This document shows, in pieces, positions 23,211 through 38,930 of a stretch of DNA of 64,000 nucleotides. A program made the translations under genes and the position numbers. The stretch is from Botryllus schlosseri (taxonomy: Eukaryota), in the NCBI GenBank assembly GCA_051294905.1, contig CM119372.1:25484001-25548000 (forward strand), written 5' to 3'. Within the stretch, counting starts at the first letter, position 1. Each line of letters starts with the position of its first letter. The notes below the pieces were generated by a model. That model was not told the origin of the DNA, did not search any database, and saw only the letters and a program-made list of their open reading frames with translations.

Positions 23211-23246
23211 GAACATACACAATCTGAAAATACAAGTCACGAGCGT

Positions 23247-23693
23247 TCATAAAGTAGATTTTTCTTTGTTTACAAAATCAAAAACGAGGCGATCATTCAC
23301 ACGTTTATCAGAACCAAAAGCATCTAAATAATCGAGGGTACCTACACCTTGACCCCTTCTAATTAGGAAAGCGGTACAATGTTCGCCGCACACAAACGAA
23401 CGTAAAGACTGTAATTGCACACTAGTGAAGGTATAATCGTCCGCGCCCAATAACCTATAGATCTCCTTCTTCAGAGGCGGAATCCCGAAAGAGTCGTGAA
23501 AGTGCGTGCCATCTTGATCGGCGAAGATACAGATCCAATGCGAGCCGCCCTTCGCGTTAGGGTCGTAATTGATAACGACTGCGTACGGCTTAGGTAGCTT
23601 TGCTGGCAATAAATCGATCGCAAAAGTACCGGCAAATAAATCTCGCGTGTCGCGGTGATTGAATAAAATATGATTAATTTGATCGGTATTCAT
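23247..23693 (-). CDS. Adenain-like cysteine maturation protease (148 aa)
   Basis: Catalytic motifs GGSHW (His), FHDSFG (Asp) and QLQSLRSFVCGEHC (Gln/Cys). The likely ATG at 23693 overlaps the MCP stop (ATGA). Confidence 0.93.
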   Translation of the reverse strand: MNTDQINHILFNHRDTRDLFAGTFAIDLLPAKLPKPYAVVINYDPNAKGGSHWICIFADQDGTHFHDSFGIPPLKKEIYRLLGADDYTFTSVQLQSLRSFVCGEHCTAFLIRRGQGVGTLDYLDAFGSDKRVNDRLVFDFVNKEKSTL

Positions 23694-24964
23694 ACGGACA
23701 CTACTTCGCGCTTCTCTGAGATCTCCAAAAGTTGTTGGTATTCTTTGAGACACAGTAGAGTCGCACCTTCAGGCAACCCCGCGGTAAGGGTCATGTGAAG
23801 CTTCACGGACCCGGTCTTCTCTAGTTGAAAGCAGCCTTGATGCGTACGGTCTGGGGTCAAATCGAAGGCAAACAGAGTGTATCCCGCCTTATAATTCTCA
23901 GAGTCGATAAAAAGATCTTCCTGAGCATCCCACTTCCCGGTGGATTGGTAGACGCTGAAAAACCCCTCGAGGTTTGTGTTTTTATCAAAGTCGAATCTGA
24001 AATTACGCCCGTACAAAAGCTTCCCGTTCACGTTGATAGCCAGATTTCCGACGTGATAGTGACAGAAATTAAAGGGGTTTCGAGTCTTACTACCGTTATA
24101 GGCAGCGGTCGGGACCAGACCAATCACGATTCGTCGAGGCATGACCCCGGAAATCAGCGTTTTCTCAATGGAGGTATCACCCGCTCCAAAAGAGTGATTA
24201 CTCATTTCGAGCTTTATAATAGGGTATTTCGCCGTGTGCGTACGAAGCATCGTTTTGTGTGCCAAACTGACAGAGTCTGAAACTTGAATTTGCTTGACGT
24301 GCAATTCCACTTTTTTCAGTATGATTTTAGAGTCGGCAGACCCGAGGAGACAGAAATCGTCATCGTTACGGATTAATCGCAACGACAGATCCACGTTATC
24401 CAGTAAATATCTGTCCTGGTCGAATAAACCGAGCGGTATCTTGCCGATGACCTCGAGCGTTGCACTGTCAGCGGTCAGGGCTTTTCGTGCCGTGAAGCCG
24501 ACGTTGTCTGCCGTGAAAGCATCCTGCTGTTTCATCGTATCCGGGATCCAGCCGATACATTTCAGATAGGTTTCGCCGGCCGCGCGAGAGCTATTTAGTA
24601 GATGGAAAATGAAGCTTTTGTAGGCGTGATTGTTGTCCGATGTGGTGATCAGCTTCGAGCCCAGATACAGATCGATCTGCTTGAATAAGGCGTCAAATAT
24701 ATCCGATACGACAGCGACGTTGTCTCCCCCGATCGTGGTGCAATCTTTTTTGGTGACTTGCAGTTGTATTTTCATAAACGAGCTGGACAAATCCAAGTAA
24801 TGATCGCTACCTTTCACGTTAATCTCAATGACATCGCCCAATTTATCCGGTGTAGCGATCAACGTGCTGGTGTCGGCGACCGCCGTTTGCGTCGGTGGTA
24901 CCGTGAAAATATCTAATCCGCTGTTGAGGCACTCGGCCGAATTTTCGTGCATCAATTTAGCCAT
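23690..24964 (-). CDS. Major capsid protein (double jelly-roll), 424 aa
   Basis: Polinton MCP motifs LDIFTVPPTQ, LFKQIDLYL, LFDQDRYLLDNVDL, PRRIVIGLV..AYNGS..NPFNF and GYTLFAFDLTPD. Confidence 0.93.
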   Translation of the reverse strand: MAKLMHENSAECLNSGLDIFTVPPTQTAVADTSTLIATPDKLGDVIEINVKGSDHYLDLSSSFMKIQLQVTKKDCTTIGGDNVAVVSDIFDALFKQIDLYLGSKLITTSDNNHAYKSFIFHLLNSSRAAGETYLKCIGWIPDTMKQQDAFTADNVGFTARKALTADSATLEVIGKIPLGLFDQDRYLLDNVDLSLRLIRNDDDFCLLGSADSKIILKKVELHVKQIQVSDSVSLAHKTMLRTHTAKYPIIKLEMSNHSFGAGDTSIEKTLISGVMPRRIVIGLVPTAAYNGSKTRNPFNFCHYHVGNLAINVNGKLLYGRNFRFDFDKNTNLEGFFSVYQSTGKWDAQEDLFIDSENYKAGYTLFAFDLTPDRTHQGCFQLEKTGSVKLHMTLTAGLPEGATLLCLKEYQQLLEISEKREVVSV

Positions 24965-25355
24965 CGAATATATCTCTACGTCTACGTTTCTTGTTTGACG
25001 TAGTACCTCCCCGCGCGCCCTTTTTAAGCTTTTTCGTGGCTTTTCGTTTACGACCCCCGATCGCGGTATCGAGAAGCTGTAGACCTCCTTCTTTACTCCG
25101 TGATATAGCGGATTGCTTGAACGAGCGCCCGGCCACCAAATCTTTTGCGATATTTGACCCGGTACGGAGGATTTGTTTCCCCAGTATCTTGGAGCCTTTT
25201 GACACTAGAGGTAAGACCGCCCGGCCTATGGTTCGAAAAATCGACGCGAGTCCGCTACCGCTTTGCCTGGACCCCCGGTAAAACCCGTAATTCCCAGCTC
25301 CGGTCTGATAGTGGTGCAACACGGCTTCTCGGTCACAACAATAGTGCACTTTCAT
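24957..25355 (-). CDS. Basic core/membrane-lytic virion protein (pVII/pVI-like), 132 aa
   Basis: QxGxG candidate protease sites (QTGAG, QSGSG) are followed by the amphipathic LASIFRTIGRAVLPLV and a K/R-rich C-terminus. It sits just upstream of MCP, as in other Polintons. Confidence 0.8.
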   Translation of the reverse strand: MKVHYCCDREAVLHHYQTGAGNYGFYRGSRQSGSGLASIFRTIGRAVLPLVSKGSKILGKQILRTGSNIAKDLVAGRSFKQSAISRSKEGGLQLLDTAIGGRKRKATKKLKKGARGGTTSNKKRRRRDIFDG

Positions 25356-25717
25356 AACGACACCCTGAGATGTATCGTGAGGTCCAAACCCGAGATGTCC
25401 AATAATTCACCATACTCGTCCCTTATATAGATGCAGAAATACTCGAAACGGTCGAGTCTGACTTTGGCGTAGTATCGATTTTGAAATATATGGTTTTGTC
25501 GCTCCCCCTCGTGTAGCGCAACGACTCTTAGCAACGGGACCAAAGCGTCACCCACCGGCGTCGACTCGATGTCATTGCAGTAGATAAAAGCGTAGAGGCT
25601 TTCACGCGACTCACGAACAAAGTTTATCTCCATAAGAGCAATCTCAAGACCTTTACAATCCATTCCGTGGGGTAGGGTAAATACGGGCCCGTCACCGGTC
25701 AGTGTTTGGAACGTCAT
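25352..25717 (-). CDS. Minor capsid (penton) paralog 3, minimal 121-aa single jelly-roll
   Basis: Motifs EIALMEINF and FIYCNDIE..VGDALVPLLRVV...IYIRDEYG..LTIHLR are shared with the two upstream paralogs. Confidence 0.8.
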   Translation of the reverse strand: MTFQTLTGDGPVFTLPHGMDCKGLEIALMEINFVRESRESLYAFIYCNDIESTPVGDALVPLLRVVALHEGERQNHIFQNRYYAKVRLDRFEYFCIYIRDEYGELLDISGLDLTIHLRVSL

Positions 25718-26471
25718 CTCGTAAGTGAAGGGTCAATTCAATGTCACCACATTTAAGTTCTTTTCCAAGAGAATCTCTTATGCTGATGCGTACGCTACGA
25801 AAGCTGTTGGCATCGGCGGGTAGGTAAAACGGTTTCCTGAATGATACGTGCTGTCGTTTCATTTCCGGTACCGTAACGGGGATGATTCGCAGCAGTCTGG
25901 ACATATAATCACCGACCGGGAGATGGCGCACGCAATCGCAATATATAAATAAATACTGAGATTTTACTATCGACGAGGTATACCACGCATCGAATTCAAT
26001 GTGCTCAACCTCGCGTAATGAGATCGGAACCTCTCCTTCCTCCGCGATGATGTCGTCAATATCGTATCTCTGATGCTCGTGTATGATACGGTAGTTACCG
26101 AAATTCGCGTAAGGCCCGAGCGTAGATGTGAGCAGAGAAGAATTCGGTGGGAATCCCTCGCATACCAATCGATTCTGGCTGGGCGTAAAGTACCAGTGAT
26201 AGCCGTTCACGAGTTCCTCGCTAATTCTTTGCATTAATTGATCGACATTATCGAAATCTCCGGTGGGTAACTCATAGACTTCGGTGACGTCTTTGACAAT
26301 CGTATTCCAGAAGCTCAAGGTCGTGGTGGGTTCTGTGATCACAATTCTATCTTGAAAATCATGGCTGAAGCTAATTTCTTGAAGAGCGATCTGTTTACCC
26401 TCCGATTCGATTTCAATCGGTAATTCAACCGTGAAATCGGGTCCGCTCCCGAATATCGTGATATAGCTCAT
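25692..26471 (-). CDS. Minor capsid (penton) paralog 2, 259 aa
   Basis: Motifs QIALQEISF and LFIYCDCV..VGDYMSRLLRIIPV...FYLP...ISIRDSLG..LTLHLR. Confidence 0.82.
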   Translation of the reverse strand: MSYITIFGSGPDFTVELPIEIESEGKQIALQEISFSHDFQDRIVITEPTTTLSFWNTIVKDVTEVYELPTGDFDNVDQLMQRISEELVNGYHWYFTPSQNRLVCEGFPPNSSLLTSTLGPYANFGNYRIIHEHQRYDIDDIIAEEGEVPISLREVEHIEFDAWYTSSIVKSQYLFIYCDCVRHLPVGDYMSRLLRIIPVTVPEMKRQHVSFRKPFYLPADANSFRSVRISIRDSLGKELKCGDIELTLHLRDDVPNTDR

Positions 26472-27271
26472 AACGCTTTGACGGCTCCTCGACGGATCAG
26501 TAGGGTCACTGTAACCGGAGCTGTTTTAAACGCGATAGGGTTATTGTTCTTGTCACGAAGATATACTCGTATATTTCGAATATTACTCTTGGCCAGGGGA
26601 AAGAAGTAAGGCTTATCATACACGCAGTGCTGTATTTTTCCTTCTTGCGCGGTCACCGGAACGCTTCGAAGGAGAGGTACTAGCTCGCTGCCGAATACAC
26701 GAGGTCTGATCAGATCGGTGTATATATAAATGGTGTCTACATCTTTCACGATGGTTTTCGGTCTGATTAAGAACTCTATTGGTTTTTGTTTCTTCAAAAC
26801 ATGATGTTCCACTGTAAAATAACGCGGAAACGTGTCCTCGATGCTGGTGAGACGCGGACCCGCACCACTGATTTTTTTGACCCGTATCAAGGGCTCGTCG
26901 GCCTGTGGAAATCGACTCTTGAGATACCTAAAGCTCAAGCCGAACACGCCACCGGTATATTGCTTGATTGTAATTTCTTTCTCGTATCGCAAGCGAAACT
27001 GTTCCAACAGATCCGGGACACTGCGATACTTGCCGGGCGGTATGTAATACACGTGACGATGCCCGCTGTCAGAAAATTCGATACCCGCACGCTTGTGGTC
27101 TACCGTGAACGTGGGCTGGAAGCTTACTGGGAACATGATCTCAGCAAGCGATGCCTCATATCTTTCTGTATCATATTTTAACTCGGAGAATAGTTGGGTT
27201 ACAAAATCGTTCGCGGTGTTAGCCTTAAAAACGCTCATTGAAGAATTACTCGGTAAAACCAGAAGAGTCAT
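26468..27271 (-). CDS. Minor capsid (penton) protein 1, 267 aa
   Basis: Canonical Polinton mCP N-terminus LVLPSNSS...NTANDFVTQL...EASLAEIMFP, and C-terminal YIYTDLI...PLLRSVPV...YFFPL...YLRD. Confidence 0.88.
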   Translation of the reverse strand: MTLLVLPSNSSMSVFKANTANDFVTQLFSELKYDTERYEASLAEIMFPVSFQPTFTVDHKRAGIEFSDSGHRHVYYIPPGKYRSVPDLLEQFRLRYEKEITIKQYTGGVFGLSFRYLKSRFPQADEPLIRVKKISGAGPRLTSIEDTFPRYFTVEHHVLKKQKPIEFLIRPKTIVKDVDTIYIYTDLIRPRVFGSELVPLLRSVPVTAQEGKIQHCVYDKPYFFPLAKSNIRNIRVYLRDKNNNPIAFKTAPVTVTLLIRRGAVKAL

Positions 27272-27434
27272 CCTCGTCGGCGGTTTGGAGAGACAGTACC
27301 CTAGTTAACGAAGATATATCCGTCTGGGTTTCGGTGAATAAGTTATACACAGTTACCCCCACGATAAAAAGCAGTATCGCGAGCTGTAGAACCACCAAAG
27401 GTATCCGTAACGTACCCCGCTGCGATAAATCCAT
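27246..27434 (-). CDS. Small single-pass membrane protein (62 aa), unknown function
   Basis: It fills the gap between integrase and penton 1 in the same orientation. It has a hydrophobic span IPLVVLQLAILLFIVGVTVYNLF and an acidic tail. Confidence 0.5.
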   Translation of the reverse strand: MDLSQRGTLRIPLVVLQLAILLFIVGVTVYNLFTETQTDISSLTRVLSLQTADEDDSSGFTE

Positions 27435-27464
27435 GATTACCACGGTCGAGTCACCGTCTCTGTT

Positions 27465-28466
27465 TTATACAAAACTGTCAACGTAAGAGTCCATCGATTT
27501 TGGATAACCCTCCCAGCGCACTAGATATCTCCGCTTGCGCCCTCTACCGATCACTCTCTGTATCGATTCTACGCGATAGACATCGTCTTTTTTATCGATG
27601 GCTTGTAATTCACTTTCGTAGAACGTTCCACTAATCACGTCCCCGTTATAATCTCGGATGGTGTACGTAGCGGGGCTCCCCAATTTCCGTGTGTGTACGT
27701 AAAATATCTCGCGAGTCCAAGATCCCGCAGTCCCTTTCGCAAACGTGGCACGTCGGGTGGTAATTCTCACTGGTTGATCGACGGGTAGCTTGGGTGACAC
27801 CGGAGGTCCGGTTCCGTTGTATAGTCTATCGAACACCAGAGACGCGTTGCTATTGGTAACCTCCGACGGTCGCATTAAAATCGCGGTGTGATACGTTTGG
27901 TTATAGCTCTCTGCGATATCACACAACACGTCGATGTAGCGATGTGTGCGGTTCTTGACAAAGTAGCGATTCAATATATTGCGGGTCGTACGAATTACCC
28001 GCTCTACGACGCTAGCCTTAGTATCAATGTTGGTAAAAAAGTGCTTGACGTGGTTGTCTCTAAAAAACCTCTGTATAACCGACCCCGTGAATTCTTTCCC
28101 GGCATCAGTCTGAACGACGTGTGGTCTCTTATGAGCGAATACCTGGTTGAAGCCCTCGATCATATCTATAGGACGCTTTCGTTTCGTGGCGTATAAAAAC
28201 ATATATTTCGAAAAACAACAAATTGACACCAACACATAACGATAGCCATCATTGCTACTAGAAATATTAGACAAGTCCATGAGGTCACTCTGGATCTGAA
28301 TAAATGGCCCGCCGACGATCGTCTTTTGTCGTTGAAATTTGCCTGTATACGGATAGAATAGGGTGTAGCTATCCTCTTGTTTCAAATCCTTCTTGTCGGG
28401 GTGCAAGTATTTACCGCGATAGCTCGCCGGGGCTTTGATATCAAAATATTTATCCTTACTCGTCAT
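27465..28466 (-). CDS. Retroviral-type (RVE) integrase with C-terminal chromodomain, 333 aa
   Basis: DDE motifs QSDLMD, QTDAGKEF and KASVVERVIRT, plus YNQTYH. The chromodomain reads YRVESI...YLVRWEGYPKSMDSYV. Confidence 0.95.
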   Translation of the reverse strand: MTSKDKYFDIKAPASYRGKYLHPDKKDLKQEDSYTLFYPYTGKFQRQKTIVGGPFIQIQSDLMDLSNISSSNDGYRYVLVSICCFSKYMFLYATKRKRPIDMIEGFNQVFAHKRPHVVQTDAGKEFTGSVIQRFFRDNHVKHFFTNIDTKASVVERVIRTTRNILNRYFVKNRTHRYIDVLCDIAESYNQTYHTAILMRPSEVTNSNASLVFDRLYNGTGPPVSPKLPVDQPVRITTRRATFAKGTAGSWTREIFYVHTRKLGSPATYTIRDYNGDVISGTFYESELQAIDKKDDVYRVESIQRVIGRGRKRRYLVRWEGYPKSMDSYVDSFV

Positions 28467-28908
28467 CGTCGTAGGCCGTCCACGACCCGTAGAGCTGGGG
28501 CGGCTTCCTGTTAGCTCGACGGCTACGTTTGATGATCTCTTGCAGTGGCGGTGATCTTTTGGCTATCTTGCTTGTGGTGGGGGTACTTGGAGACGACGGG
28601 GCTTTCGGTGTTACTTTCGAGGTGACCCGACCCGGCTTCACTTCGTGCAGTAATTCACGGAGAGTGGCTATCTGATCGTTCGTGAACCCGTTGGAGGTGT
28701 CGGTCATCTTCATCTGAAGAGGCTTGTCGATCTGACCCCGTTGACTTTTATACTTTGAGATGGCAGAGTTATACAAGGACAATTTCTTGTCGGCCGAAAC
28801 GTCCATAGTCAAAATCGCGCTGATCGATCGGTCCAACTCGGAGTTCAAATCAGTCGCGTTAGAGGGAGCTAGAGGGTTAGGCGATATGATCACTTTTTTG
28901 AAATTCAT
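28456..28908 (-). CDS. Conserved Polinton hypothetical protein, 150 aa
   Basis: LDRSISAIL..VSADKKLSLYNSAISKY resembles the helical motif of the small ORF usually found upstream of Polinton integrase. It overlaps both neighbouring genes. Confidence 0.7.
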   Translation of the reverse strand: MNFKKVIISPNPLAPSNATDLNSELDRSISAILTMDVSADKKLSLYNSAISKYKSQRGQIDKPLQMKMTDTSNGFTNDQIATLRELLHEVKPGRVTSKVTPKAPSSPSTPTTSKIAKRSPPLQEIIKRSRRANRKPPQLYGSWTAYDDDE

Positions 28909-29279
28909 TTTTTGCCAAAAACAGATTTCAACAACGATGCCGCCAAGGGGAGGATTGACAAGATACCGCTAATAAAACCTCCTCGTTGGGTGTTGGCGTG
29001 TAATACACGTCTCTTGGTCTTCAAGCTCAACTTTTTACTTGTCAGCTTTCGAATTTTGTCTTTATGCGGGTGTAAATTTTGTATATGGCGTTTTGACAGT
29101 CGCAGATTGCCGTTCAAAACATTCACACAGACTTCACAAAATGCCTTCACCAAACCGGGCGAGCTCCCCAATAATATATCCTTCCTTACCGCGGGCGACG
29201 CCTTGGACAGAAATTTCAAAGTCTCGCCGTGCTTCTTAATATAACAGTGACGTTTCGGCAGCGATTTGGTCCGAGCCAT
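28905..29279 (-). CDS. Basic Polinton virion protein with QRGG/F site and C-terminal amphipathic helix (pX/pVI-like), 124 aa
   Basis: Motif LVKAFCEVCVNVLNGN...IRKL...KRRVL..QRGGFISGILSILPLAASLL. Confidence 0.8.
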   Translation of the reverse strand: MARTKSLPKRHCYIKKHGETLKFLSKASPAVRKDILLGSSPGLVKAFCEVCVNVLNGNLRLSKRHIQNLHPHKDKIRKLTSKKLSLKTKRRVLHANTQRGGFISGILSILPLAASLLKSVFGKK

Positions 29280-29316
29280 TATGAATATAGTGTCAAAGTG
29301 CCGGCACTTTCGCTAT

Positions 29317-29958
29317 TTATAGTGGCGTGTACAACACGAGTTCATCCCCAGGAAACACCCCTGTTTTAACACGACTAGAATCGGGTGTGGCTTGCGTCAA
29401 ATCTATAAAAAGGTACCCGTGAGCGTTCTTTGTCGCATCGGCATACGCATCAACTAGAAACTTGGAGTTACCAGGGTACATTTGCTTGCCAAGCACTCGA
29501 ATCTGAGATCGATCTCTAGGATTACGCATGATAATCAAATACTGGGTGCTGAGACTGAGGTCCCTCGATCTTTTGGACTGGAAATATAAATTTTGGACCG
29601 CGAATATTGTGGTCACCGATTTATGATTCGCGTAGACTGTAAAAAAGGGGGTCACCCTGTCCGAAAATTCCATTTTATCGTCAATAATTAATAGAGTAGG
29701 ACAGGGGCGGCTTGTCGCCAACTCATCCAAAATGGAGAGATCCGAGTAAAACTCAACACCTTGCAGCTCGTCAAAGGAGTCTTGGTAAGCCGTATAGCAA
29801 TAGATAATTCTTTTAATTCGCCCCTTTGAAAGCTGATCGATATTTTTTATGACTTTAAATATAAAAGTACTCTTCCCCGAAAACGACGGTCCTGCCAAAA
29901 GACACGCCCTCCCTGTCGAGAAATCCATCACCAAGGCTGTTTTGACACGACGAGACAT
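29317..29958 (-). CDS. A32/FtsK-HerA-family genome packaging ATPase, 213 aa
   Basis: Walker A GPSFSGKS, Walker B LLIIDD, plus VQNLY, NPRDRSQI and GYLFIDL. Confidence 0.93.
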   Translation of the reverse strand: MSRRVKTALVMDFSTGRACLLAGPSFSGKSTFIFKVIKNIDQLSKGRIKRIIYCYTAYQDSFDELQGVEFYSDLSILDELATSRPCPTLLIIDDKMEFSDRVTPFFTVYANHKSVTTIFAVQNLYFQSKRSRDLSLSTQYLIIMRNPRDRSQIRVLGKQMYPGNSKFLVDAYADATKNAHGYLFIDLTQATPDSSRVKTGVFPGDELVLYTPL

Positions 29959-29976
29959 GTATTCACAAACACACTT

Positions 29977-29986
29977 CTATATATAA
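29977..29986 (-). promoter_or_regulatory. TATA-like box of the structural/integration gene block
   Basis: TTATATATAG lies about 20 nt upstream of the ATPase ATG, the first gene of the overlapping array. Confidence 0.4.
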
Positions 29987-30077
29987 CAAGGACAGGTACA
30001 CGAAAAAATATGGCGATTCAGAGCGTCACGCAAACCGTCCACACAGCGAATCTTACAATGTCCACGAGGCCGTCTTT

Positions 30078-30950
30078 TTACACCAGAAGCGAGGTGTCAT
30101 AATCGACACGAGAAGACGAGGCATCATCAGGGCTCAGCGGTGTCCTGGCCAAGGCTCGAGGTCTACGAGGGGGAGGGTAAGGTGATACCCGGCCGGGTGA
30201 CTTTTTTGTTATGATTTTAGTCAGATTCGGTCTTGGTAGCACTGGCGACTGATGTATGTCTCTGGCACGCTGTGGTGTCGCCACGACAAACGGGGCAGTC
30301 AGATTCGGTCTTGGTATCACTGGCGACTGATGTATGATGTCTCTGGCACGCTGTGGCATCGCAACGACAAACGGGGCGTCAACCACGGTAGGTGATGTGT
30401 CGACGGATTTAGGGGCGCGACGATCTTCTCCCGCTCGGAGATAACCCTGGTTCATGAAGCGGTATCGGTTAATGTCGTTTCCTTCATGAGTCAAGCGCTG
30501 ATCGCGGCTCTGTACGCTGCAGGCGGCACGATCGGTTGGGTCTGTGAAGCCAACTTGACGACGATTCAAGATACGGGCATCAGTCAGCAGTCGGCTCGTC
30601 ACACCATCGCCTTCATACGTGAACACAGGTAGAAACTGCAGCTCCGTCACACACCGCAACAGGTCGTTTCGAAAGCTCATCCATTCTAGAAGACAAAAGA
30701 TAGTTACACATGTGCCGGGTAATGACTATTACCGCTTGTTACCTGGTCTCAAGGTGGTGGCAATGTGTAGACGATCCTGCAACTCTTTCTTGAAGTGAGT
30801 AGTTTGCTGATCGGTCAGATTGTCTTCCAGCAGAATATCTTTCAGCACAGAGACACGATGCCAGTTGGCTTGGGTGTCGCGGTGAAGTCTATTGAGTGAA
30901 AGCTGGCCACAAACATGACTAATGAAATCGCTAGCTGAGTTGTGAGTCAT
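30078..30950 (-). CDS. Spliced Polinton gene of unknown function (exons 30950-30743 and 30685-30078, ~271 aa) with a Pro-rich repeat
   Basis: Donor CCAG|gtaaca (phase 1) and acceptor tcttctag|AA TGG ATG join two ORFs in frame across a 57-nt intron. A strong acceptor tttttcccag directly precedes ATG 30950. Confidence 0.55.
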
Positions 30951-31328
30951 CTGGGAAAAAACAAAAATAACACACATATTACAAACTGAAACGCCGCCTT
31001 CGAAAACTAGTCGCAAGCGACAGGCGTTGATGATAGAAAAAGCGTTCAATATGGAACAAAATTTCACAGTGAGCACCAAAAGATAAACAATGTATCCCAA
31101 CAAAATAGTGTCTTCGTTTTAACATGTCTTTGACGTGCCGCCGAAACACTATAAAATAAAATAATAGTAAGACTCCATACTTGTGTCACAATATACAACC
31201 CCACCTGTTTTTAGGAATTCCATGCGACTCGACAGGTCTTGTAGCTGAGACGGGCGAGGAGGACGCCAGCAGATTCTTGTGTCTATGAATAAACGTGCCT
31301 TAGCAACGACAGAGAGCTAAGAGCATAT

Positions 31329-31571
31329 TTACACACCCCCAATCTCCTCCAAGATGTTTCTGAGTCTTCTCACGTCCATGTTCAAAGCCTCTATCTTCAA
31401 GACCTCAGCCAAAAGTTCCACCCGGTCTGCCCCACATTCGTGTCGTATGATCAGGCCAAACAGAACGCCAATCTCAAACTTGTCTTTCTGCTCGCACGGA
31501 GGTAAATGATCGTACCCAGACATGTACTCCCGCAGCGGGAAGAATTCTGCATGATCAATGTATTGATCCAT
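31329..31571 (-). CDS. Polinton ORF/exon of unknown function (80 aa)
   Basis: The ATG is immediately preceded by acceptor ttctcag. An upstream mini-exon 31658-31631 has a perfect gtgagt donor. Confidence 0.45.
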   Translation of the reverse strand: MDQYIDHAEFFPLREYMSGYDHLPPCEQKDKFEIGVLFGLIIRHECGADRVELLAEVLKIEALNMDVRRLRNILEEIGGV

Positions 31572-31886
31572 CTGAGAATTGCGACAATTATGATTTCAAT
31601 TTATGATGAATCATAACAGTTTCAACTCACCACGATTCCTTCTATACGCTGATAAAATCTGAAAAGAAAAAACTCATTGTATTATACAATCATGAAACAC
31701 AATACGCTTTTCCCCACCTGCTGTAAACTATTGCGATGTTAATGCTATCGTCTGTAAACAACACGAGAAAACGAGCACTATTGTGAAAGGTTCAAGATGC
31801 ATAGAATAATTCGAGTCAACATGAGAGCATAATGTGAAAACAGATATAAAAAAGCAGAGAACATGAACAGTGCACATTTGAAAAAA

Positions 31887-34800
31887 TCATAGTTCCAAGG
31901 GTCTCGTATGAATACCATCTGATTCGACTATTCGCTTACAGTAGAAGTGAGACAAGGCCGATCGAAATTGCTCATAGGTAAAAATGGAAGCATTTTTTCG
32001 CACAAATCCAGAATTAATATCCCCATGTGGTTTTTTCTCAAACAACACTTTCCGGTAGATGTCAGCAGTCAGTTTGTTTACTTTCGAGAGCCCTTTGCAT
32101 GAGTACTTATCCTCATTACAATAATAAGTCTTTGCGGACAGACCAACAAAAATATTCGATTGTGCCTCAATTTTGAAAAGACCACTGGTCCGTTGATCAT
32201 ATCGATTACGAGCTTTACAACAGGCACGTTTATCATTGAACGAGAGAGGATTGGCCAAAAATTCATCACGGTGCTCGTCACAGGCGATTGCTGGAAAATA
32301 TTTGTGAAAATTTTCAAAAAATTCTGCTTGTTTTTCGGGTCGTACAACTTTTAGCAGGCTGTCAGAGGAGATTGCGCCGTACCAGGAATCAGTGTCCGAA
32401 TATGCTAGTGCGATGGACCGTGGCAGGAGGTAGGTGGACAGATACGAATGGAACCGTAATAAGGCCAATTTCGCATACCCATACACAAAGTACCCAATGT
32501 GGTTAGGTTGGTTCCAAACATGTTTTCTCAATTTCATGGACACCTCAAAAATATCTGGTGACAACTCAATCATTGATTTAAATCTGGAGTCATTTACCAA
32601 GACCATAGCTTTTTGGCGGTTAACAATCTTGACATCAGAATATTTTGTACAATTCGAGATAGTTTTACCTATACAGGAATTTGCAATGTCTTTATAGAAC
32701 TGCCCCAGTGGCTTCTGGGACGGGTCATCGTCAGCCCGTCTTCTAGCCTCGGTTATCGTATCTACAAGAGAATTGAAACATTCAATGGGTTCAAACTCGA
32801 TAGCTTGAAATACCTTAGTAACGATTAACCCGTTCTCGAGATACCACTTCAATAGTGGTGTTATTAACAATGTTTTTGTGGCCTGCAGAGTAGCGATCAA
32901 GAATTTCCGTGGCCGTTTCAAAAAACCATGTTGTTCAGCAAATGCTTTCATGTACGGGCCTATATCATCACGACTTACGTAAGCATGTTTGAACAGGGGA
33001 CAGAACTCACTAAAATGCTCCTTGAGGTGACTAGGCACATGAATATCGACCTCAACGGCCCCAAAAAATTGATCTTTTGACACCAACTCTAAGAGTTTCG
33101 AACTTGAAAGGACCCGACATTTCACCATTTTACTGGATTCGAGAGTTTGAATAAAGGCAGCTATATCACTTCGTTGGCGCATAATGACCCATTGACATTC
33201 TGTGATGTACTCCAATTTATACCCCACTTTTTGAATATACTGGATTTTACGCTGCGTCGCGGCCCAGCGGGCTTGACGATCCGGGCTGGCTCCCAACTCG
33301 CAGCCGTGACCGTGGTGAAAACATCCAAACAGCTCAAGTGCAACAGGCCCTTGTGGGGTCCTATAATACCCATCAATACAAATCTGGAGCAGGCCGATAC
33401 GATGCTCAGGACCATTGAATTGATGTTGGATTTTGACCCCCCGACAGTGCGCAATGTAGCTTAGCCATTGGTGAGCCATTTTTCCATAGAGCGGTGCCGT
33501 TTTTGTCCTGGAGAATAGAGTAAAATCTTCATTAGGTGACCACAGACAAGGATAGCCCCCCGGTAATCGTGAACGAAGAGTATCCAAATAGAGACAGTTG
33601 GCGTCGACCCCTAGCACCTGTTCTACAGGTAGAGCGTTATCACCATAGATTTGGGGTTTGATTTTTGTGACTTTAGCCTCTGCATATCGCAATGAAACAA
33701 CAGAAAGCCCGCCACGTAGATTTTCCCGTATCAAGGTGTGTATATGGCTATACTTTTGATTCAACAAGGTAAATACAGGTGGTATGCTATTAAACATAAA
33801 CCGTGATGCCAGAGACGGCAATGATATACCGTCTTTACTCATGTCAATTGAGTAACGAGCAAAGAGTTGCTTGTGCTTTGTGAGGGCCTCCAGTAACGGC
33901 CCGACATCTAAACTGACATAGAAAGATAGATAGTCACGAAAAGTAGTCATTTTATGTTCTGCCCACTTTGATTGACACCAAAGATATTGCTCATCTGTTA
34001 TATTAGACCGTTTCAGTTTGTTATAGAAATGTATGTGGTCTGGGAGAGATTTTTCATCCAATACCGATAAATCAGTGAAATAGTTATACGGAAAAAAGGC
34101 CTTCGTTGAAGCACAGTTATGACAACGTGTGTACGCATCATAACTTGTACCGGCGCCAAGATACAAGGTCACATCCAAAAATCGAAATCGATTAGTCGAC
34201 AAGGACATATACGACGTACCCCTCTTAACAATACTGATAGGGTCTGATAAGTACTCCACCAGATATGGGATAATCAAAGGTATATCATAGCGAGACCCAT
34301 TGAAAGAGAATACAGGTAATTGACTCAAATAATTCAAAAAACGATGTTTCAATAAGGTTGCCGGGCTCATACGCTTGACATCCGGCTCAGCGGTATGCAT
34401 TTCTTGAGCAATACAATCTAATCGCTCCAACACGTCATGAAATTGTTGACATAATGACTCAAAACAATCACTTTGGATCAATTCAAAACGTGACATCATT
34501 CTAGCAACCAGCGCCCCAGGGTCGCCATCACTAATCAGTACTTCTGGGGTCTCGTACCCTGGGTAATTACATGCGAAGGCCACCGCGGCCGGGATATGAT
34601 GATCTACATAGTGCACATTAGCAGTGTCGTTTGGGGTCGAGCCTTTTTGTAATATACTCTCATAGTCAAAAACCAAGTTATACGGGTAGAAACGAGATGG
34701 TTTGGGCACGATTATACCCAACTCGTCCAACGCTTCAAATATAGTAGGCTCAGGCTTGAACATACCCCCACGGTAGTGGTTAGGAATGCCTTTAAAACAA

Positions 34801-35765
34801 TTATGACGTTTGAGATAATATTTTGAACTGAACAGGCGATGACAGGTCTCACAGCTATAATTCTTACAATATAAGTTCAAATTTTTAATATAACATGAAT
34901 GTCTTCCTCCCTCTAAATGAACGTGAATTTTCAACCCCTCCCGAGCACCGTGCCGTAGTATATAACCGACCCCATCTTTCAATGTATATACACAGATGGA
35001 TACTTTAAGACATGACTCGACTTTATCTAGGTCGTTCATACACACACCAGAATCAGGGTCCCCATATAAAGCGGAATATTGTGCCACCAGAGAGAGTGTT
35101 TTAGATTGTAAGTCATCACCACGATAATTACCACCACAAAGCATAACAGCGACACAGCGAAATATACAATAATGATCGTCATAGGGTACACCATGTCGAT
35201 TTTTCATTAAATCCAAAACACTATGTGAATTCACAATAGACTTTGGGATTTCGATTGTACTACACCCAATTAATCTGAAGTCAGATTTGTACACGTAAAA
35301 GGTCACGTTTGTGACCGCCAAGACCGCAAATTTAGTATCGTCTCTTTGAAAGCGAGCACTCTCGAAGCCCGCGTCCAGGTCTATATCGCTTACAAATTGG
35401 TCAAAGTCACTACGATTGGCAATCATTTTAGGTGTATCCAACATAACACCAGCGTTCTCGGACGCATGATAGTATCTCAATTCGCTTGTCTCAACATTAT
35501 CAAGTATGTGGGCAAAGGCGTAATTGATTCTAAAACCATACTGCTGTGAGACGAAGATGTCCTGTAGATCGTTGATGACGTCACTGGGGTTGCGGCCGAG
35601 TATACGGAAATTGTGTAGGCTGCGTATACTGTGCGGTGCGAGTGTTGAGCTGCGAATGGAGTGCCAGTTTTCTTCCACGATCTCGATCAGATTTTCAGGT
35701 ATACCCAAGCTGCTTGGTTGTGCGAAATCAGACACAATTCTAACAAGGTGTCGTCGCCTAGACAT
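31887..35765 (-). CDS. Protein-primed family B DNA polymerase (pPolB) with N-terminal TP/OTU-like and Zn-finger regions and an inserted nuclease-like domain
   Basis: Exo motifs VFDYES, FNGSRYD and YVSLDV. Pol motifs GVDANCLY, KDIANSCIGK, YSDTDS and GLFKIE..AKTY. It is 1292 aa from MSRRRH (35765), which follows a tttccag acceptor. Confidence 0.96.
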   Translation of the reverse strand: MSRRRHLVRIVSDFAQPSSLGIPENLIEIVEENWHSIRSSTLAPHSIRSLHNFRILGRNPSDVINDLQDIFVSQQYGFRINYAFAHILDNVETSELRYYHASENAGVMLDTPKMIANRSDFDQFVSDIDLDAGFESARFQRDDTKFAVLAVTNVTFYVYKSDFRLIGCSTIEIPKSIVNSHSVLDLMKNRHGVPYDDHYCIFRCVAVMLCGGNYRGDDLQSKTLSLVAQYSALYGDPDSGVCMNDLDKVESCLKVSICVYTLKDGVGYILRHGAREGLKIHVHLEGGRHSCYIKNLNLYCKNYSCETCHRLFSSKYYLKRHNCFKGIPNHYRGGMFKPEPTIFEALDELGIIVPKPSRFYPYNLVFDYESILQKGSTPNDTANVHYVDHHIPAAVAFACNYPGYETPEVLISDGDPGALVARMMSRFELIQSDCFESLCQQFHDVLERLDCIAQEMHTAEPDVKRMSPATLLKHRFLNYLSQLPVFSFNGSRYDIPLIIPYLVEYLSDPISIVKRGTSYMSLSTNRFRFLDVTLYLGAGTSYDAYTRCHNCASTKAFFPYNYFTDLSVLDEKSLPDHIHFYNKLKRSNITDEQYLWCQSKWAEHKMTTFRDYLSFYVSLDVGPLLEALTKHKQLFARYSIDMSKDGISLPSLASRFMFNSIPPVFTLLNQKYSHIHTLIRENLRGGLSVVSLRYAEAKVTKIKPQIYGDNALPVEQVLGVDANCLYLDTLRSRLPGGYPCLWSPNEDFTLFSRTKTAPLYGKMAHQWLSYIAHCRGVKIQHQFNGPEHRIGLLQICIDGYYRTPQGPVALELFGCFHHGHGCELGASPDRQARWAATQRKIQYIQKVGYKLEYITECQWVIMRQRSDIAAFIQTLESSKMVKCRVLSSSKLLELVSKDQFFGAVEVDIHVPSHLKEHFSEFCPLFKHAYVSRDDIGPYMKAFAEQHGFLKRPRKFLIATLQATKTLLITPLLKWYLENGLIVTKVFQAIEFEPIECFNSLVDTITEARRRADDDPSQKPLGQFYKDIANSCIGKTISNCTKYSDVKIVNRQKAMVLVNDSRFKSMIELSPDIFEVSMKLRKHVWNQPNHIGYFVYGYAKLALLRFHSYLSTYLLPRSIALAYSDTDSWYGAISSDSLLKVVRPEKQAEFFENFHKYFPAIACDEHRDEFLANPLSFNDKRACCKARNRYDQRTSGLFKIEAQSNIFVGLSAKTYYCNEDKYSCKGLSKVNKLTADIYRKVLFEKKPHGDINSGFVRKNASIFTYEQFRSALSHFYCKRIVESDGIHTRPLEL

Positions 35766-35875
35766 TCTGGAAACAAAAAACACAGAATCAATAACAGCTA
35801 GCACAAAACACACATTAATACATATGATATTACAGCATAAGCATGCAATAAAAACATGATAGCACACCAAAACAG

Positions 35876-36355
35876 TTACACATTCGTATAAAATTTCATG
35901 GTGGCTCTGGCAGCTGACATCTCTTTGAGAAAGGCAACTTTCGCACGCATGATGCGTTCCAAGGGTAATTGCATACGCAAATCCTGCCCGTTCGACTGAG
36001 ATAGTATTTGCGAAATTTCTTGCTCTATCCGGTTATAATCTTGAGTGAATGTTTCATGAGAAGGAAAACTAGATCTCGAAAGTATATCATCCACTTCCCC
36101 CAAAATAGTGAACATCGCTTCCGATGGGGCGATTGAGATAGCCTCAACAATGGTCGCCTTGAGGTGCTCCATCATTCGTCTACTGTATTTACCAAACCTC
36201 TCACCCCCAGGTCTACGTCTGGATGGGAATACAGGAGGTTGGGCTGGATTTTCTACATTTTCTGGAATATCATTTGCAGGGCTAATCGCATCGAGCAGGT
36301 CTACCGGATAACCACCTTCCATCAATTCTGGTATCCCGTTATCAGCCATAGTCAT
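35876..36355 (-). CDS. Helical ORF (159 aa), possible 5' exon of pPolB or a separate protein
   Basis: Open frame from ATG 36355. The donor GT|gtaact at 35880/35879 joins in frame to the pPolB acceptor at 35766. Confidence 0.55.
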   Translation of the reverse strand: MTMADNGIPELMEGGYPVDLLDAISPANDIPENVENPAQPPVFPSRRRPGGERFGKYSRRMMEHLKATIVEAISIAPSEAMFTILGEVDDILSRSSFPSHETFTQDYNRIEQEISQILSQSNGQDLRMQLPLERIMRAKVAFLKEMSAARATMKFYTNV

Positions 36356-36380
36356 GAGCAAAGATTTGTGATTGTAAGCT

Positions 36381-36750
36381 CAATTTACACTTACTTATAG
36401 ACACTGTAGCCACATGACAAGCAGAAGAAGGGACTCAACACAGTTTAACAGTGCCAGCAAAACGCGGGAAGGAATTTTATGACCCTCCACTCGCCTTTTC
36501 CCCCAACCATTTGAATATACATACAAGCCTCTTTTTTCTCTCGTGTCATACTCGCATACCCAATTTACACTTACTTATCGACACTGTGAGCCACATGACA
36601 ATTGGAAGAAAGTACTTAAAACAGGTAAACAGAGCCGGCAAAATTCGGCAAGAAATTTTATGACACTCTACTTGGCTACCACCCTTTTTTCTCCAAAGCA
36701 TTTGAATATAAATACAAGACTCTTTTTCTCTAGTGACATACTTACAGGCA
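36381..36750. promoter_or_regulatory. Bidirectional promoter region made of two ~180-190-bp tandem units
   Basis: CAATTTACACTTACTTAT..ACACTGT..GCCACATGACAA occurs at 36381 and 36561, and CATTTGAATATA.ATACAAG.CTCTTTTT occurs twice. The region lies between the divergent pPolB and OB-fold genes. Confidence 0.6.
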
Positions 36751-36760
36751 TAATTACATC

Positions 36761-37468
36761 ATGGCATGTAAATACAACCCGTACGAAAATACTGCAACGA
36801 AGCGCAAGCTAGATATTGACTTGAAACGGGCTGCCCCATCTCATATTCCAAATTTCGACAATGCCACCAGTTTCTATGGCACGCAAGTCAGCTTCGACGG
36901 GCGTGTGCAATTGGCGTCGACCAGACGACATGGACCCAAGATGACTTATATGAAAGTCTTGATCACAGATGGTAAAAAATCTCTACCAGGGGTGATATTC
37001 AATGACAAATTACTGGACTGCATCGAAACTGCATACAGACAAGGTCATACTATGACATTCTGTAACATCAAGATCACTGCTGACGCAAGAACTGATGCCC
37101 CGTCATTAATCATTGGTCACAATTCTACTGCTACGAAGAGCAAAGCACGCTTACCCTGTCCAGAGATGGTTGAATTCCGGTACGTGTCCGCAGAAGATAT
37201 CCAAAAAGGCTTGTACGATGACAAGATTGTTAATTACAGAGGTCTCTGTATTGCCACGGATTCTGAATCCATTGGCACAAACTCGGAGAGACAGCTACAT
37301 TCATATGCACTAGTGAATGGTGACATTTCTGTTGATCTGAAAAATTGGGGTATTATACCGTTATTCACTGCTGACAAATACTATGATGTCACCCATCTAC
37401 GTGTACAAGTCCGATCTGGCAAACGTGAGCTGTTCTTACAAGACTATTCGCGTATTTGTAAAGAGTGA
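36761..37468 (+). CDS. Putative tandem OB-fold (RPA/SSB-like) ssDNA-binding protein, 235 aa
   Basis: Two beta-rich repeats with an OB-like pattern: VLITDGKKSLPGVIFND...TFCNIKI...LIIGHNS and VNYRGLC...ALVNGDISVDLKNWG...YDVTHLRV...LFLQDYSRI. AATAAA follows at 37485-37490. The fold call is by eye. Confidence 0.65.
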   Translation: MACKYNPYENTATKRKLDIDLKRAAPSHIPNFDNATSFYGTQVSFDGRVQLASTRRHGPKMTYMKVLITDGKKSLPGVIFNDKLLDCIETAYRQGHTMTFCNIKITADARTDAPSLIIGHNSTATKSKARLPCPEMVEFRYVSAEDIQKGLYDDKIVNYRGLCIATDSESIGTNSERQLHSYALVNGDISVDLKNWGIIPLFTADKYYDVTHLRVQVRSGKRELFLQDYSRICKE

Positions 37469-38637
37469 ACTGTTTCATGTATGAAATAAAAGAAACATGT
37501 GATTATTTTGTTTACACTATCAGAGATTAGGGTTGGTAAACTTTCTAACCTGCCAGAATACATCATCTTTCAATATCATACTACTAGCTATCGTCTCGAT
37601 TCGGCAATCTCACACGAGCGGTATGGAAAAGAGGTTATCAGATTGTAAAACCGCGTGTTTGTGAGAGCACTATACGGAGTGATAATTAAAACAGAGCGGG
37701 ACAGTACCACAGTACATTAACAGGGGGGAAAATCGGCGTGATACTTAATCAATACTCAACTCTCGCTTCCAGTATAGTGACCAAGCGACGGCCGAGACCA
37801 ATGTCCAACGTTTTCGAACAAAGAGAATAATTCCTCGACCCAGCGGGGTGTATTGCAGGACAAAGGCGCTGTGCATGTCTACGAGGCGACATGACTGATT
37901 TCGAAAGCGAGATTGTCGCTCCTCGGCACAGCAGGGTGGATCACAAAACAAAAGGCGCTATGCAGTCTACGCGGCCGCATGTCTATTTTCGAAAGCGAGA
38001 TTGATCATCGTTAAATGGGTCTTGGACAAAAGCAACGATAGCAGCGCGTCGTATAATACCCGAGCTGAGTAGTTATAGTATACTATAAACCTGATCCTCA
38101 CACCACCGACGAGCCGTAACCACAATTCTAATACCGCGACAATCCATACACAATTATACACCATACCGAGAGCTTTCAAGGTATCTGTCGGCGGGCTTCG
38201 ATCGATTGTCGACACGTGATCCGTGCTCTGTGACCCGTAACAATAGCGGGGTTTATTTACATGGATATTCTTTCCTGTCCTCGAGAACTCGAGTTGACAC
38301 GTATATTTATAGACATAACAGATCATTTCTCCCGTTACATCTTCGATCAATAACAAAGTAGAGTACGATTCCAGTATGACACAGCCCGTAGGCGTCACTC
38401 TGCACAGACAAACGTAAGTAATCGATACTCCACTTTGGCGTATCATCTGGCCGGACGCGCGTTGACAATCCACCTAAAACACGAGCCGGGATCTCACACT
38501 CGGACCCGAAGGAACAAATACTATACTGTTGTTGTTCACGGGGAGATATAAAAATTATTAGTAAGTGTATACCAATGAAATTAAAAGACAATCCATTGAT
38601 GTTCGTGGGAAAATGTAATAAATACTATCAAATACAT

Positions 38638-38930
38638 AATACACAAGTCTCGTGTCCAGAAGTCAGGCGAGGTAGAATCAGGAGTGGAAAAGTACAAGTA
38701 GAAGTACTCAAGTCTCATGTCTGAGTACAAAGGTCAATCCAGATTCTTTGTTCGTTTTCTCTCTAATTATTCCCCTTTTTTAATTGCCGCACAGTCAGAA
38801 GGGGAATCCCCTCGAGTATTGCTGCAGAATTGAGAATGAGCTAATTCTTTCACTATCTTTCATATTCATAATTCTTGTTTGTTTAAGTTAAATCGTGATT
38901 TGGCACATTCCGCCCATTTATCAAACTACT
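38638..38930 (-). repeat. Right terminal inverted repeat of the Polinton
   Basis: Reverse complement of 22506-22799. It ends ACTACT followed by TSD CAGATC. Confidence 0.97.

Follow-up and report, generated by a model that had tools for sequence, protein, structure and literature searches.

Short introns and a host spliced leader in two accessory genes of a Botryllus schlosseri Polinton

Polintons are usually annotated as sets of intron-less viral open reading frames (ORFs). Those of animals (polintoviruses, adintovirus-like elements) have long terminal inverted repeats (TIRs), a 6-bp target duplication, a protein-primed-type PolB, an rve integrase, a P-loop gene resembling a packaging ATPase and a tightly packed block of late ORFs. 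The element described here shares these features, its PolB and ATPase-like genes being candidates. Introns in some element genes are reportedly mentioned by Kapitonov and Jurka (2006) and Pritham et al. (2007), and our literature searches found no RNA-level report of spliced or leader-capped Polinton genes. A related arrangement is known from the early/E2-type units of adenoviruses, which combine linear dsDNA and a protein-primed polymerase with spliced polymerase-side RNAs whose acceptors lie just before start codons. The closest cellular counterpart is the operon of the ascidian Ciona intestinalis, which, according to Satou et al. 2006 (PMC1488885), joins genes of the same orientation at tiny or nil intercistronic distances; the unpaired AG of the downstream cistron takes the single host leader, and unresolved dicistronic RNA can be found.

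The locus analyzed here differs from other Polintons in having orphan genes between polB and the ATPase gene, five introns of 54 to 59 nt and capping by a host leader. It differs from adenovirus E2-type units in that its downstream gene, ORF-D, takes its 5' leader from the host by trans-splicing rather than from a viral leader exon; neither sequence nor fold searches revealed any similarity to adenovirus proteins, the fold searches covering the exon-1 fragment of the upstream gene, ORF-U. The orientation, the leader-taking unpaired AG, the short intercistronic distance and the dicistronic RNA of Ciona operons are all shared. Here, however, the unit belongs to a mobile, virus-like element rather than to the host's own genes, and it has a 28-nt spacer (37 nt in a second family), whereas most Ciona operons have none (PMC1488885).

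The window is a stretch of 64,000 nucleotides from Botryllus schlosseri (GCA_051294905.1, CM119372.1), in which we studied the region 30078 to 31886 on the minus strand. The element itself is bounded by TIRs of 275 nt with 99% complementarity and by an identical 6-bp flank, CAGATC, on both sides (target duplication). Its rve integrase (PF00665) exceeds the Pfam cut-off of 32.6 bits with a score of 33.3 (E = 5.9e-08). A 1,292-amino-acid ORF was taken as polB: its nearest Atlas clusters belong to PF03175 (0.97; 23 of 30 hits in the PF03175 set), while Pfam and PDB sequence searches with it were empty, and a YSDTDS-type motif can be read in it. The late block consists of tightly packed ORFs whose sizes and order fit capsid, protease and ATPase genes. 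In Pfam and PDB sequence searches, the ATPase ORF gave weak P-loop matches only, and the candidate capsid and adenain-type protease ORFs gave no match. The features are as follows.

22506 to 38930, no strand assigned: whole Polinton/Maverick element, 16,425 bp, with TIRs, target duplication and rve integrase
35767 to 37154, minus strand: intron upstream of polB, 1,388 nt, GT..AG; 6 X24 reads with 4 starts, plus an X8 contig
31718 to 31886, minus strand: upstream non-coding exon with its 3' end at 31718, continuous from the polB stop at 31887
31659 to 31717, minus strand: intron i0, 59 nt, GT..AG, upstream of the coding sequence in the 5' UTR; seen in contigs of X3 and X8
31631 to 31658, minus strand: non-coding mini-exon, 28 nt here; three of the 20 copies covering it have 42 nt
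31572 to 31630, minus strand: intron i1, 59 nt, GT..AG, with an acceptor adjoining ATG 31571
31337 to 31571, minus strand: ORF-U coding exon 1, 235 nt, beginning with ATG 31571
31283 to 31336, minus strand: intron i2, 54 nt, GT..AG, phase 1
31205 to 31282, minus strand: ORF-U coding exon 2, 78 nt, ending in CAG followed by GTGGGG
31149 to 31204, minus strand: intron i3, 56 nt, GT..AG, phase 1
30979 to 31148, minus strand: part of ORF-U coding exon 3, with stop TAA at 30981-30979
30951 to 30978, minus strand: spacer from ORF-U stop to ORF-D ATG, 28 nt, containing a pyrimidine tract and, at 30952-30951, the AG that serves as trans-splice acceptor
30743 to 30950, minus strand: ORF-D coding exon 1, 208 nt, beginning with ATG 30950
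30686 to 30742, minus strand: intron i4, 57 nt, GT..AG, phase 1, GTAACA...TTCTAG
29940 to 30685, minus strand: ORF-D coding exon 2, with its stop at 30080-30078, a 138-nt 3' UTR and, near 29940, the poly(A) site

Very probably, the transcription unit on the polymerase side of the Polinton has its downstream part at 29940 to 31886, which host mechanisms express with the architecture listed above; this confidence concerns the expression architecture, not protein function. The evidence comes from raw RNA-seq (X24, about 6/100 of the run read) and from three contig sets (X2, X3 and X8) whose RNA status is a guess, though spliced forms are present in them. X24 is unstranded, and the strand was taken from GT..AG ends, the leader and the poly(A) tail. 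All four read-backed joints show CT..AC when read on the plus strand and hence GT..AG when read on the minus. Intron i4 had been predicted as a 57-nt intron (30742-30686) fusing two ORFs in frame, and its joint (30685/30743) was crossed by 57 X24 reads (31 + 26, 37 starts) and by one contig each of X2, X3 and X8; its removal joins ...LRP in frame to E-W-MSFR.... The predicted 59-nt intron before ATG 31571 corresponds to i1, whose joint (31571/31631) was crossed by 9 X24 reads (3 + 6, 7 starts) and by contigs of X3 and X8. RNA junction reads thus occur at both of the junctions, 30743/30685 and 31631/31571, that the original prediction had singled out. Its candidate exon 31282-31205, with CAG|gtgggg, proved to be spliced in RNA at both ends, at joints 31282/31337 (i2; 15 + 10 X24 reads, 15 starts and one X8 contig) and 31148/31205 (i3; 9 + 11 X24 reads, 17 starts and three contigs). 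The 28-nt mini-exon, 31658-31631, agrees with the predicted acceptor and gtgagt boundaries (TTTTCTTTTCAG before it and GTGAGT after), its upstream edge being defined by two contigs. The 3' end is marked by 19 X24 reads with a T-run before 29940.

The first intron was read from a contig row, 31661/31738, that skips 76 nt and has 22 other letters between. We read this row as the 59-nt intron i0 because the 22 letters match, at all but one position, an exon end found in variant copies in the genome. All five introns have GT at the 5' end and AG at the 3' end, with a pyrimidine-rich tract before the AG, and no other short GT..AG joint was among the joints listed over 15.4 kb. No intron-less genomic copy was found among the 16 distinct copies measured, all of which keep the five introns (i0, 58 to 61 nt; i1, 59 to 60 nt; i2, 54 nt; i3, 55 to 58 nt; i4, 57 to 58 nt). 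The joined forms are therefore of RNA origin rather than processed DNA copies.

Splicing opens two genes rather than one: ORF-U, whose 160 codons are spread over three exons from ATG 31571, and ORF-D, whose 271 codons are spread over two exons from ATG 30950. Both frames are open only once spliced; in the unspliced sequence, stops cut both. A fusion of U and D through the alternative joint 31205/30950, present in an X8 contig only, was rejected, as its frame meets a stop after 6 codons. The fragmented ORFs had been predicted to be exons of spliced viral regulatory genes. The spliced-gene part is supported by junction reads, by the frames after splicing and by intron positions kept at about 50% protein identity; the "regulatory" part found no support. 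As also predicted, ORF callers miss these genes, six-frame calling splitting the exons or missing them, and accessory genes of such elements would be systematically missed or truncated in this way.

The splice sites are conserved in sister elements, as would be expected under the original prediction. Every splice site retains its GT or AG in 20 or 21 of 21 copies: the donor of the upstream exon (CAG|GTGGGG) is present in 20/20 copies covering it, the i1 donor in 20/20 and its acceptor in 21/21, the i2 donor is GT in 20/21 (AT in one), and the i3 and i4 sites are kept in 21/21. A second family (L042-L044) differs from the present one much more deeply, with exon protein identities of 48 to 58% and 66% at the polB C-terminus. 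It nevertheless has all five introns and the acceptor plus ATG at the same places, including the GT..AG of i0. Exon lengths of 235, 78, 208 and 236 nt are identical in both families, whereas every intron length differs, and the ORF-U stop aligns with the stop of family 2. A single-protein search of the genome with the family 2 query found no third family.

These comparisons bear on whether the introns might have been gained recently and neutrally, in the manner of introners, or reflect noisy splicing of a dying element, without importance to it. There is a precedent for the former, since introner-type intron gain within polinton-like elements of dinoflagellates is described in PMC12166617. Here, however, the five positions are common to two families with saturated synonymous sites, which indicates that the introns are old; both ORFs are interrupted by stops without splicing; alignments found no sequence common to the introns; and i0, i2 and i3 vary less among copies than exons do (diversity, 0.007 to 0.015 versus 0.024 to 0.049). 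We regard recent insertion or noise as extremely improbable. The RNA evidence shows that an animal Polinton lineage has taken on a host expression grammar of minimal introns, ATG-abutting acceptors and a leader-capped downstream cistron, and this host-style design has been kept across deep divergence.

The most used site of the region is the trans-splice acceptor 30952-30951, directly before ATG 30950, where 65 X24 reads run past 30952 into the host 25-nt spliced leader. The junction lies 28 nt after the ORF-U stop. The letters ahead of the leader in these reads resemble a template-switch primer tail. The 30-letter consensus of the loose ends was rejected as the leader, having one genome match with 3 mismatches and no leader gene. 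Its first 8 letters belong to the library primer, so the inner 21-mer was used as the leader query. This 21-mer had 710 genome matches, compared with 0 in a reversed control, and at 6 of the 13 leader loci read, the leader is followed by GT and then an Sm-like site, the arrangement typical of genes for leader RNA. The acceptor reads CAG|ATGACT in 21/21 copies and CAG|ATG in family 2, where the 37-nt spacer has AATAAA-type signals (read by eye) right before the acceptor. The 25-nt leader is identical to "Chordata 1" in Table 1 of PMC3795323. The earlier reading of this DNA had missed the host leader acceptor.

We infer that U and D are expressed as a leader-resolved dicistron of the ascidian type, with its 3' end at the poly(A) site at 29940. 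In ascidian operons (PMC1488885), trans-splicing is confined to unpaired acceptors and invariably affects the downstream cistrons. The RNA data show that the five short spliceosomal introns (59, 59, 54, 56 and 57 nt) are removed, that the leader is trans-spliced onto the acceptor within the fourth exon, before the ORF-D ATG, and that a poly(A) tail follows at about 29940. The cis-spliced dicistronic RNA would serve ORF-U, and leader trans-splicing would free a capped monocistronic ORF-D mRNA, as for downstream genes of ascidian operons. RNA across both ORFs is seen in an X2 contig (record 4), which, although contigs are not single molecules, covers 31150-30743 and 30685-30451 and thus the 3' part of U and the 5' part of D with i4 removed. 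No upstream mRNA polyadenylated at or near the ORF-D acceptor was among the loose ends listed.

The unit could begin upstream of polB. An X8 contig (record 18, 3,099 nt) is unbroken on 34466-31738 and then runs into the spliced exons, and the intron 35767 to 37154 links an upstream leader exon to the base preceding polB ATG 35765; an acceptor adjoining an ATG is a design common to the polB and U/D acceptors. The link of U and D to polB would come from that one contig, and a contig spanning two genes does not show a single transcript. The X24 depth fits an internal promoter just as well, given its steep drop upstream of 31283: summed depth per bin was 60 to 105 over 29742-31283, 12 over 31284-31797 and 0 to 3.8 elsewhere. 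U and D might accordingly have their own internal promoter(s), with the leader added to a monocistronic D pre-mRNA by outron removal and the dicistrons representing read-through, so that there would be no operon. The roughly 5-fold fall in depth upstream of 31283 and the roughly 30-fold fall into polB would fit, as would the fact that most trans-spliced metazoan genes are monocistronic (PMC1488885). Against this, the D acceptor follows the U stop so closely (28 nt) that a promoter would have to lie inside the U coding exon, RNAs across both ORFs exist (X2 record 4 and the 20 i3 junction reads into the shared exon), and the signals before the family 2 acceptor are placed as in ascidian operons. 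We therefore consider independent promoters unlikely and retain the leader-resolved dicistron.

Most steady-state RNA covers U and D only, and the capsid genes stay silent as U and D are transcribed (summed X24 depth of capsid-side genes, 0 to 1.7 and mostly 0). Only 507 of the 1,853 X24 reads are at least 99% alike to the present copy, so the RNA is assigned to the family and not provably to this copy. Reads with indel variants of several copies (47 of 79 lacking 3 nt at 30334, and 27 loose ends at 30430 showing a variant with a 6-nt insertion) show that many copies are transcribed. Such mixed variants at high share are difficult to reconcile with spliced RNAs from one domesticated, host-owned copy, with the Polinton copies silent and their splice sites inherited baggage. 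Good coverage of only the small U/D region in X24 would be expected of a co-opted gene, and the strong purifying selection on ORF-U would also fit. However, every U/D genome match sits in the element order polB-U-D-ATPase, no solitary U/D copy was found among the genome matches, and polB is also covered by X8 and X2 contigs. A single domesticated source is thus very unlikely, and the RNAs are better read as products of the element family.

Codon comparisons point to different constraint on the two genes. Between families, nonsynonymous versus synonymous difference is 0.26 versus 0.85 in U and 0.33 versus 0.87 in D residues 1-145. The C-terminal half of ORF-D has a dN/dS of 0.52. Within the family, diversity at the three codon positions is 0.011/0.016/0.083 in U and 0.026/0.026/0.042 in D. 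ORF-U is thus under strong purifying selection, and the constraint on ORF-D among recent copies is only mild.

Both proteins are orphans, without detectable relatives or, for the U exon-1 fragment, a recognisable fold. Pfam at E up to 5 gave no match for U or D, and word-indexed searches found no relatives of ORF-D exon 2 or, among longer proteins, of ORF-U exon 1. An exhaustive HMMER profile search with residues 1-85 of ORF-D exon 2 against 1.84 billion representatives gave 0 hits, and ORF-U exon 1 had no relative in Atlas (best score, 0.77). The AF2 model of ORF-U exon 1 (78 residues; pLDDT, 88.7) has five helices. Fold searches with it gave nothing specific: the best E in Foldseek was 2.3, and the top VIA-align matches, at Z 6.4, were designed helical bundles. 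The ORF-D exon-2 fragment was poorly folded in its model (pLDDT, 48.8).

U and D may be lineage-specific early or accessory proteins, made with the structural genes off. Our best guess at their role, a conjecture and a tentative one, is regulation of the integrated element or host interaction on its behalf; a replication helper of the polymerase is ranked behind it, as a more doubtful conjecture. It is also conceivable, if rather speculative, that polB-U-D is a host-style leader-resolved operon in which U and D are kept on from about 20 copies with the virion genes off, which would fit provirus maintenance, superinfection immunity or a host-serving function. U and D would then be a eukaryotic counterpart of the lysogeny genes of temperate phages, expressed via trans-splicing. 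As the main products of otherwise quiet proviruses, they are obvious candidates for the study of element persistence, and the dependence of element expression on host-specific machinery is a plausible barrier to host switching and a marker of long co-evolution.

Tandem Repeats Finder reported no tandem repeats, including in the ORF-D tail; two repeats of 27 to 28 residues are visible there in the translation. Two further joints in this repeat-bearing tail, 29998/30615 and 30108/30419 (2 to 4 reads), have non-GT-AG ends and were treated as copy variants or artefacts rather than introns.

RNA was placed on positions 23060-38450 of the Polinton-bearing region by mapping three contig sets (X2, X3, and X8, whose RNA status is guessed) and a raw, unstranded RNA-seq run, X24, sampled to about 6%. 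Within 23060-38450, the short CT..AC joints (plus-strand reading; GT..AG on the minus strand) all fell inside the region in which the original prediction had proposed short introns. Introns are labeled i0 to i4 in the direction of transcription:

31571/31631, minus strand: joint of i1, skips 59 nt (9 X24 reads, 7 starts; contigs in X3 and X8)
31282/31337, minus strand: joint of i2, skips 54 nt (25 X24 reads, 15 starts; contig in X8)
31148/31205, minus strand: joint of i3, skips 56 nt (20 X24 reads, 17 starts; contigs in X2, X3, and X8)
30685/30743, minus strand: joint of i4, skips 57 nt (57 X24 reads, 37 starts; contigs in X2, X3, and X8)

A fifth joint, 31661/31738, was seen in contigs alone (X3 and X8), and its two sides are separated by 22 other letters. 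It is best read as the probable removal of 31717-31659 (i0): CAG flanks the joint on both sides, and the 22 letters fit, with one mismatch, an exon end that in copies such as L007, L009, and L011 stands just before a conserved donor, CAG|GTGGGG. Read in this way, both borders of the 28-nt mini-exon are placed, the upstream one on weaker evidence. All sequence features on which the prediction was built were present where it had located them, and the two junctions that it had singled out, 30743/30685 and 31631/31571, both appeared in RNA (57 and 9 X24 reads, respectively, plus contigs). In the genome (495.5 Mb, 219 contigs), region 29959-31886 has at least 20 more copies with 90 to 100% identity, and the introns were retained in all 16 distinct genomic copies measured; since none of these 16 is without an intron, the joined forms are RNA products.

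Junction reads thus support the view that the fragmented ORFs are exons of spliced Polinton genes, and the frames join after splicing. Where the prediction had allowed for one or more genes, the frames from the read-supported joins give two. ORF-U (160 codons) opens with ATG 31571, immediately downstream of the i1 acceptor, and runs through exons 31571-31337 and 31282-31205 into the start of exon 31148-30743, ending at TAA 30981-30979. ORF-D (271 codons) starts at ATG 30950 in a different frame of the same exon, crosses the 57-nt intron to give the ...LRP-E-W-MSFR... join that had been predicted, and ends at 30080-30078. Each of the three coding introns has phase 1. A fusion of ORF-U to ORF-D through 31205/30950, an alternative joint seen in a single X8 contig, was rejected, as its frame stops after six codons.

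The strongest signal of the U/D region is not a cis joint: 65 X24 reads leave 30952 into letters that do not belong to the element. The inner 21 letters of this loose end had 710 matches in the genome, compared to none for a reversed control, and 6 of 13 loci examined have GT plus an Sm-like site after the 21-mer, the arrangement of leader RNA genes. Letters ahead of the leader in the reads resemble the tail of a template-switch primer, in which case the leader would be a true mRNA 5′ end. The sequence found at the ORF-D acceptor is the 25-nt 'Chordata 1' leader as listed in Table 1 of PMC3795323, which makes the host a chordate that trans-splices a leader. The trans-splice acceptor (pyrimidine tract plus CAG) abuts ATG 30950, 28 nt past the ORF-U stop. 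Among 15 ORF starts inspected, AG with a pyrimidine tract at the ATG occurred only for polB (the polymerase-like ORF), ORF-U, and ORF-D; starts of the late genes did not have this combination. The 710 matches are dispersed across chromosomes, and at the other 7 of the 13 loci (L029-L041) the 21-mer runs straight into unrelated sequence without a GT donor; such loci resemble retro-copies of trans-spliced RNAs, or repeats with a 5′ leader.

According to passages of PMC1488885 on ascidian operons, trans-splicing takes place only at acceptors without an upstream partner donor, downstream cistrons are always trans-spliced, and cistrons nearly touch. The U/D design matches these rules as set out there. 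The data contain spliced RNAs with both ORFs (X2 contig record 4; i3 junction reads), D RNAs capped by the leader, and a poly(A) end shared by these RNAs. The dicistronic RNA would serve as the U message, and trans-splicing would free the D message; counted as junction reads, leader joints outnumber i3 joints about three to one (65 versus 20). Two known kinds are combined here, a Polinton and an ascidian leader-resolved operon: in the U/D region, minimal introns and trans-splicing of the host type occur in a virus-like element. Introns in some element genes are reportedly mentioned in the earliest papers on Polintons and Mavericks. Among the matches listed, titles and abstracts on splicing in Polintons, Mavericks, and adintoviruses gave no case of animal Polinton genes with introns verified by RNA or with leader trans-splicing, and neither is reported in the parts consulted of PMC12166617, PMC10748475, 10.1101/2024.03.25.586562, PMC3671162, and PMC2836005. 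The finding is of use mainly for annotation and for understanding the expression and persistence of such elements.

The spliced region is enclosed by a complete Polinton/Maverick element at 22506-38930, with TIRs of 275 nt that are 99% complementary and the identical six bases CAGATC on either side. Its other genes include the following:

31887-35765, minus strand: polB, 1292-codon ORF, nearest Atlas protein clusters PF03175
29317-29958, minus strand: P-loop ATPase-like ORF
27465-28466, minus strand: rve integrase (PF00665, 33.3 bits versus a cut-off of 32.6)
reaching down to 23247, minus strand: tightly packed or overlapping ORFs

PF03175 polymerases were the closest Atlas clusters to the polB ORF (0.97; 23/30 matches), which contains a YSDTDS-type motif. 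Pfam did not recognize this 1292-aa ORF, missing PF03175 even at E 10, and a PDB sequence search returned no match. Residues 303-321 weakly resemble a C2H2 zinc finger.

In X8, a single contig extends without interruption from 34466 in polB to the spliced exons, and the polB acceptor, one base before its ATG, is joined to an upstream exon ending at 37155:

35767-37154, minus strand: GT..AG intron of 1388 nt (6 X24 reads, 4 starts, plus an X8 contig)

Both observations would fit one long polymerase-side unit. Depth in X24 is 60 to 105 over U/D and drops to 12, next to 3, and to about 0 to 3 on entering polB, which fits an internal transcription start equally well. ORF 35876-36355 sits within the 1388-nt intron, and the exon upstream of 37155 is antisense to a plus-strand ORF (36761-37468, 235 aa) with no Pfam match. 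Between these two ORFs, at 36400-36760, lies a direct duplication of ~180 nt with TATA-like and conserved 'gtcataaaatt...cttgtatgtatattcaaatg' blocks, a candidate for a promoter region that has been duplicated and is perhaps bidirectional.

At the other end, a T-run before 29940 in 19 reads indicates that the RNA ends there in a poly(A) tail, 19 nt within the ATPase ORF. Within the ORF-D 3′ UTR, at 29985-29960 and ~30 nt ahead of the ATPase ATG, lies a TATA-like TTATATATAG with TTTGTGAATA after it, which is kept in family 2 (four diverged loci, L042-L045). With the poly(A) site inside the ATPase ORF, this suggests that the end of the early unit overlaps a likely late promoter.

U/D RNAs were by far the most abundant element RNAs in X24, with capsid-side genes near zero; in X8, polB was also covered (depth 43), with almost nothing on capsid-side genes, and in X2 the whole element was covered (depth 23 to 184). 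These differences between runs (23060-29741 versus 29742-34466) may reflect early-only versus full expression, or DNA in X2. No Pfam family was found for either protein. Two word-indexed protein searches (ORF-D exon 2; ORF-U exon 1) gave no match, nor did an exhaustive HMMER search of 1.84 billion representatives with an ORF-D exon 2 profile. ORF-U exon 1 (78 residues) is predicted to fold into five helices (pLDDT, 88.7), and structure searches with this model matched generic helical bundles only. The predicted fold of an ORF-D fragment was poor (pLDDT, 48.8); the N-terminal half of ORF-D is predicted helical, and its tail is rich in proline and arginine, with two tandem units of 27 to 28 residues (30214-30378). 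An early regulatory or host-interaction role for U/D is a tentative possibility, ranked above a replication-accessory role, itself rather unlikely, because U/D are made while capsid-side genes are near zero.

Splice sites were conserved among copies: GT and AG were kept in 20 to 21 of the covering copies at every site (21 aligned), the sole exception being AT at one i2 donor, and they were also kept in family 2. Since main-family copies differ by just 0 to 10%, their conservation alone says little. Family 2, found using exon proteins, has 66% identity in the polB C terminus, 58% in U, and 41 to 48% in D. L042-L044 have all five introns, the ORF-D acceptor and ATG, and the ORF-U stop at the same positions; coding exon lengths are equal in both families (235, 78, 208, and 236 nt), and intron lengths are 59/63, 59/64, 54/58, 56/64, and 57/60 nt (main family/family 2). 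Synonymous differences between families are saturated at 0.85 (U) and 0.87 (D residues 1-145), compared to nonsynonymous differences of 0.26 and 0.33. Both ORFs are open once spliced in L042; D is broken in L043 and L044, and L044 also has a stop in U. L045 (C103:27000-33000) is without ORF-D, its ORF-U exons being followed directly by the ATPase gene, and has the polB C terminus twice.

In the main family (the 16 distinct sequences among 20, excluding truncated L021), diversity was 0.011/0.016/0.083 by codon position in U and 0.026/0.026/0.042 in the N-terminal half of D. Exon indels were absent outside the repeat-bearing D tail, whose length varies in frame (300, 369, 372, 375, and 378 nt), with one out-of-frame copy (362 nt); both families share the last ORF-D residues (S-L/M-L-V). 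Pairwise diversity of i0, i2, and i3 among main-family copies was 0.007 to 0.015, versus 0.024 to 0.049 in exons; third codon positions of ORF-U, at 0.083, were far more diverse than these introns. Comparison of the two families showed i0 and i1 to be more alike (0.66 and 0.64) than the coding exons (about 0.60). Judged from these alignments, these minimal introns may be under additional constraint.
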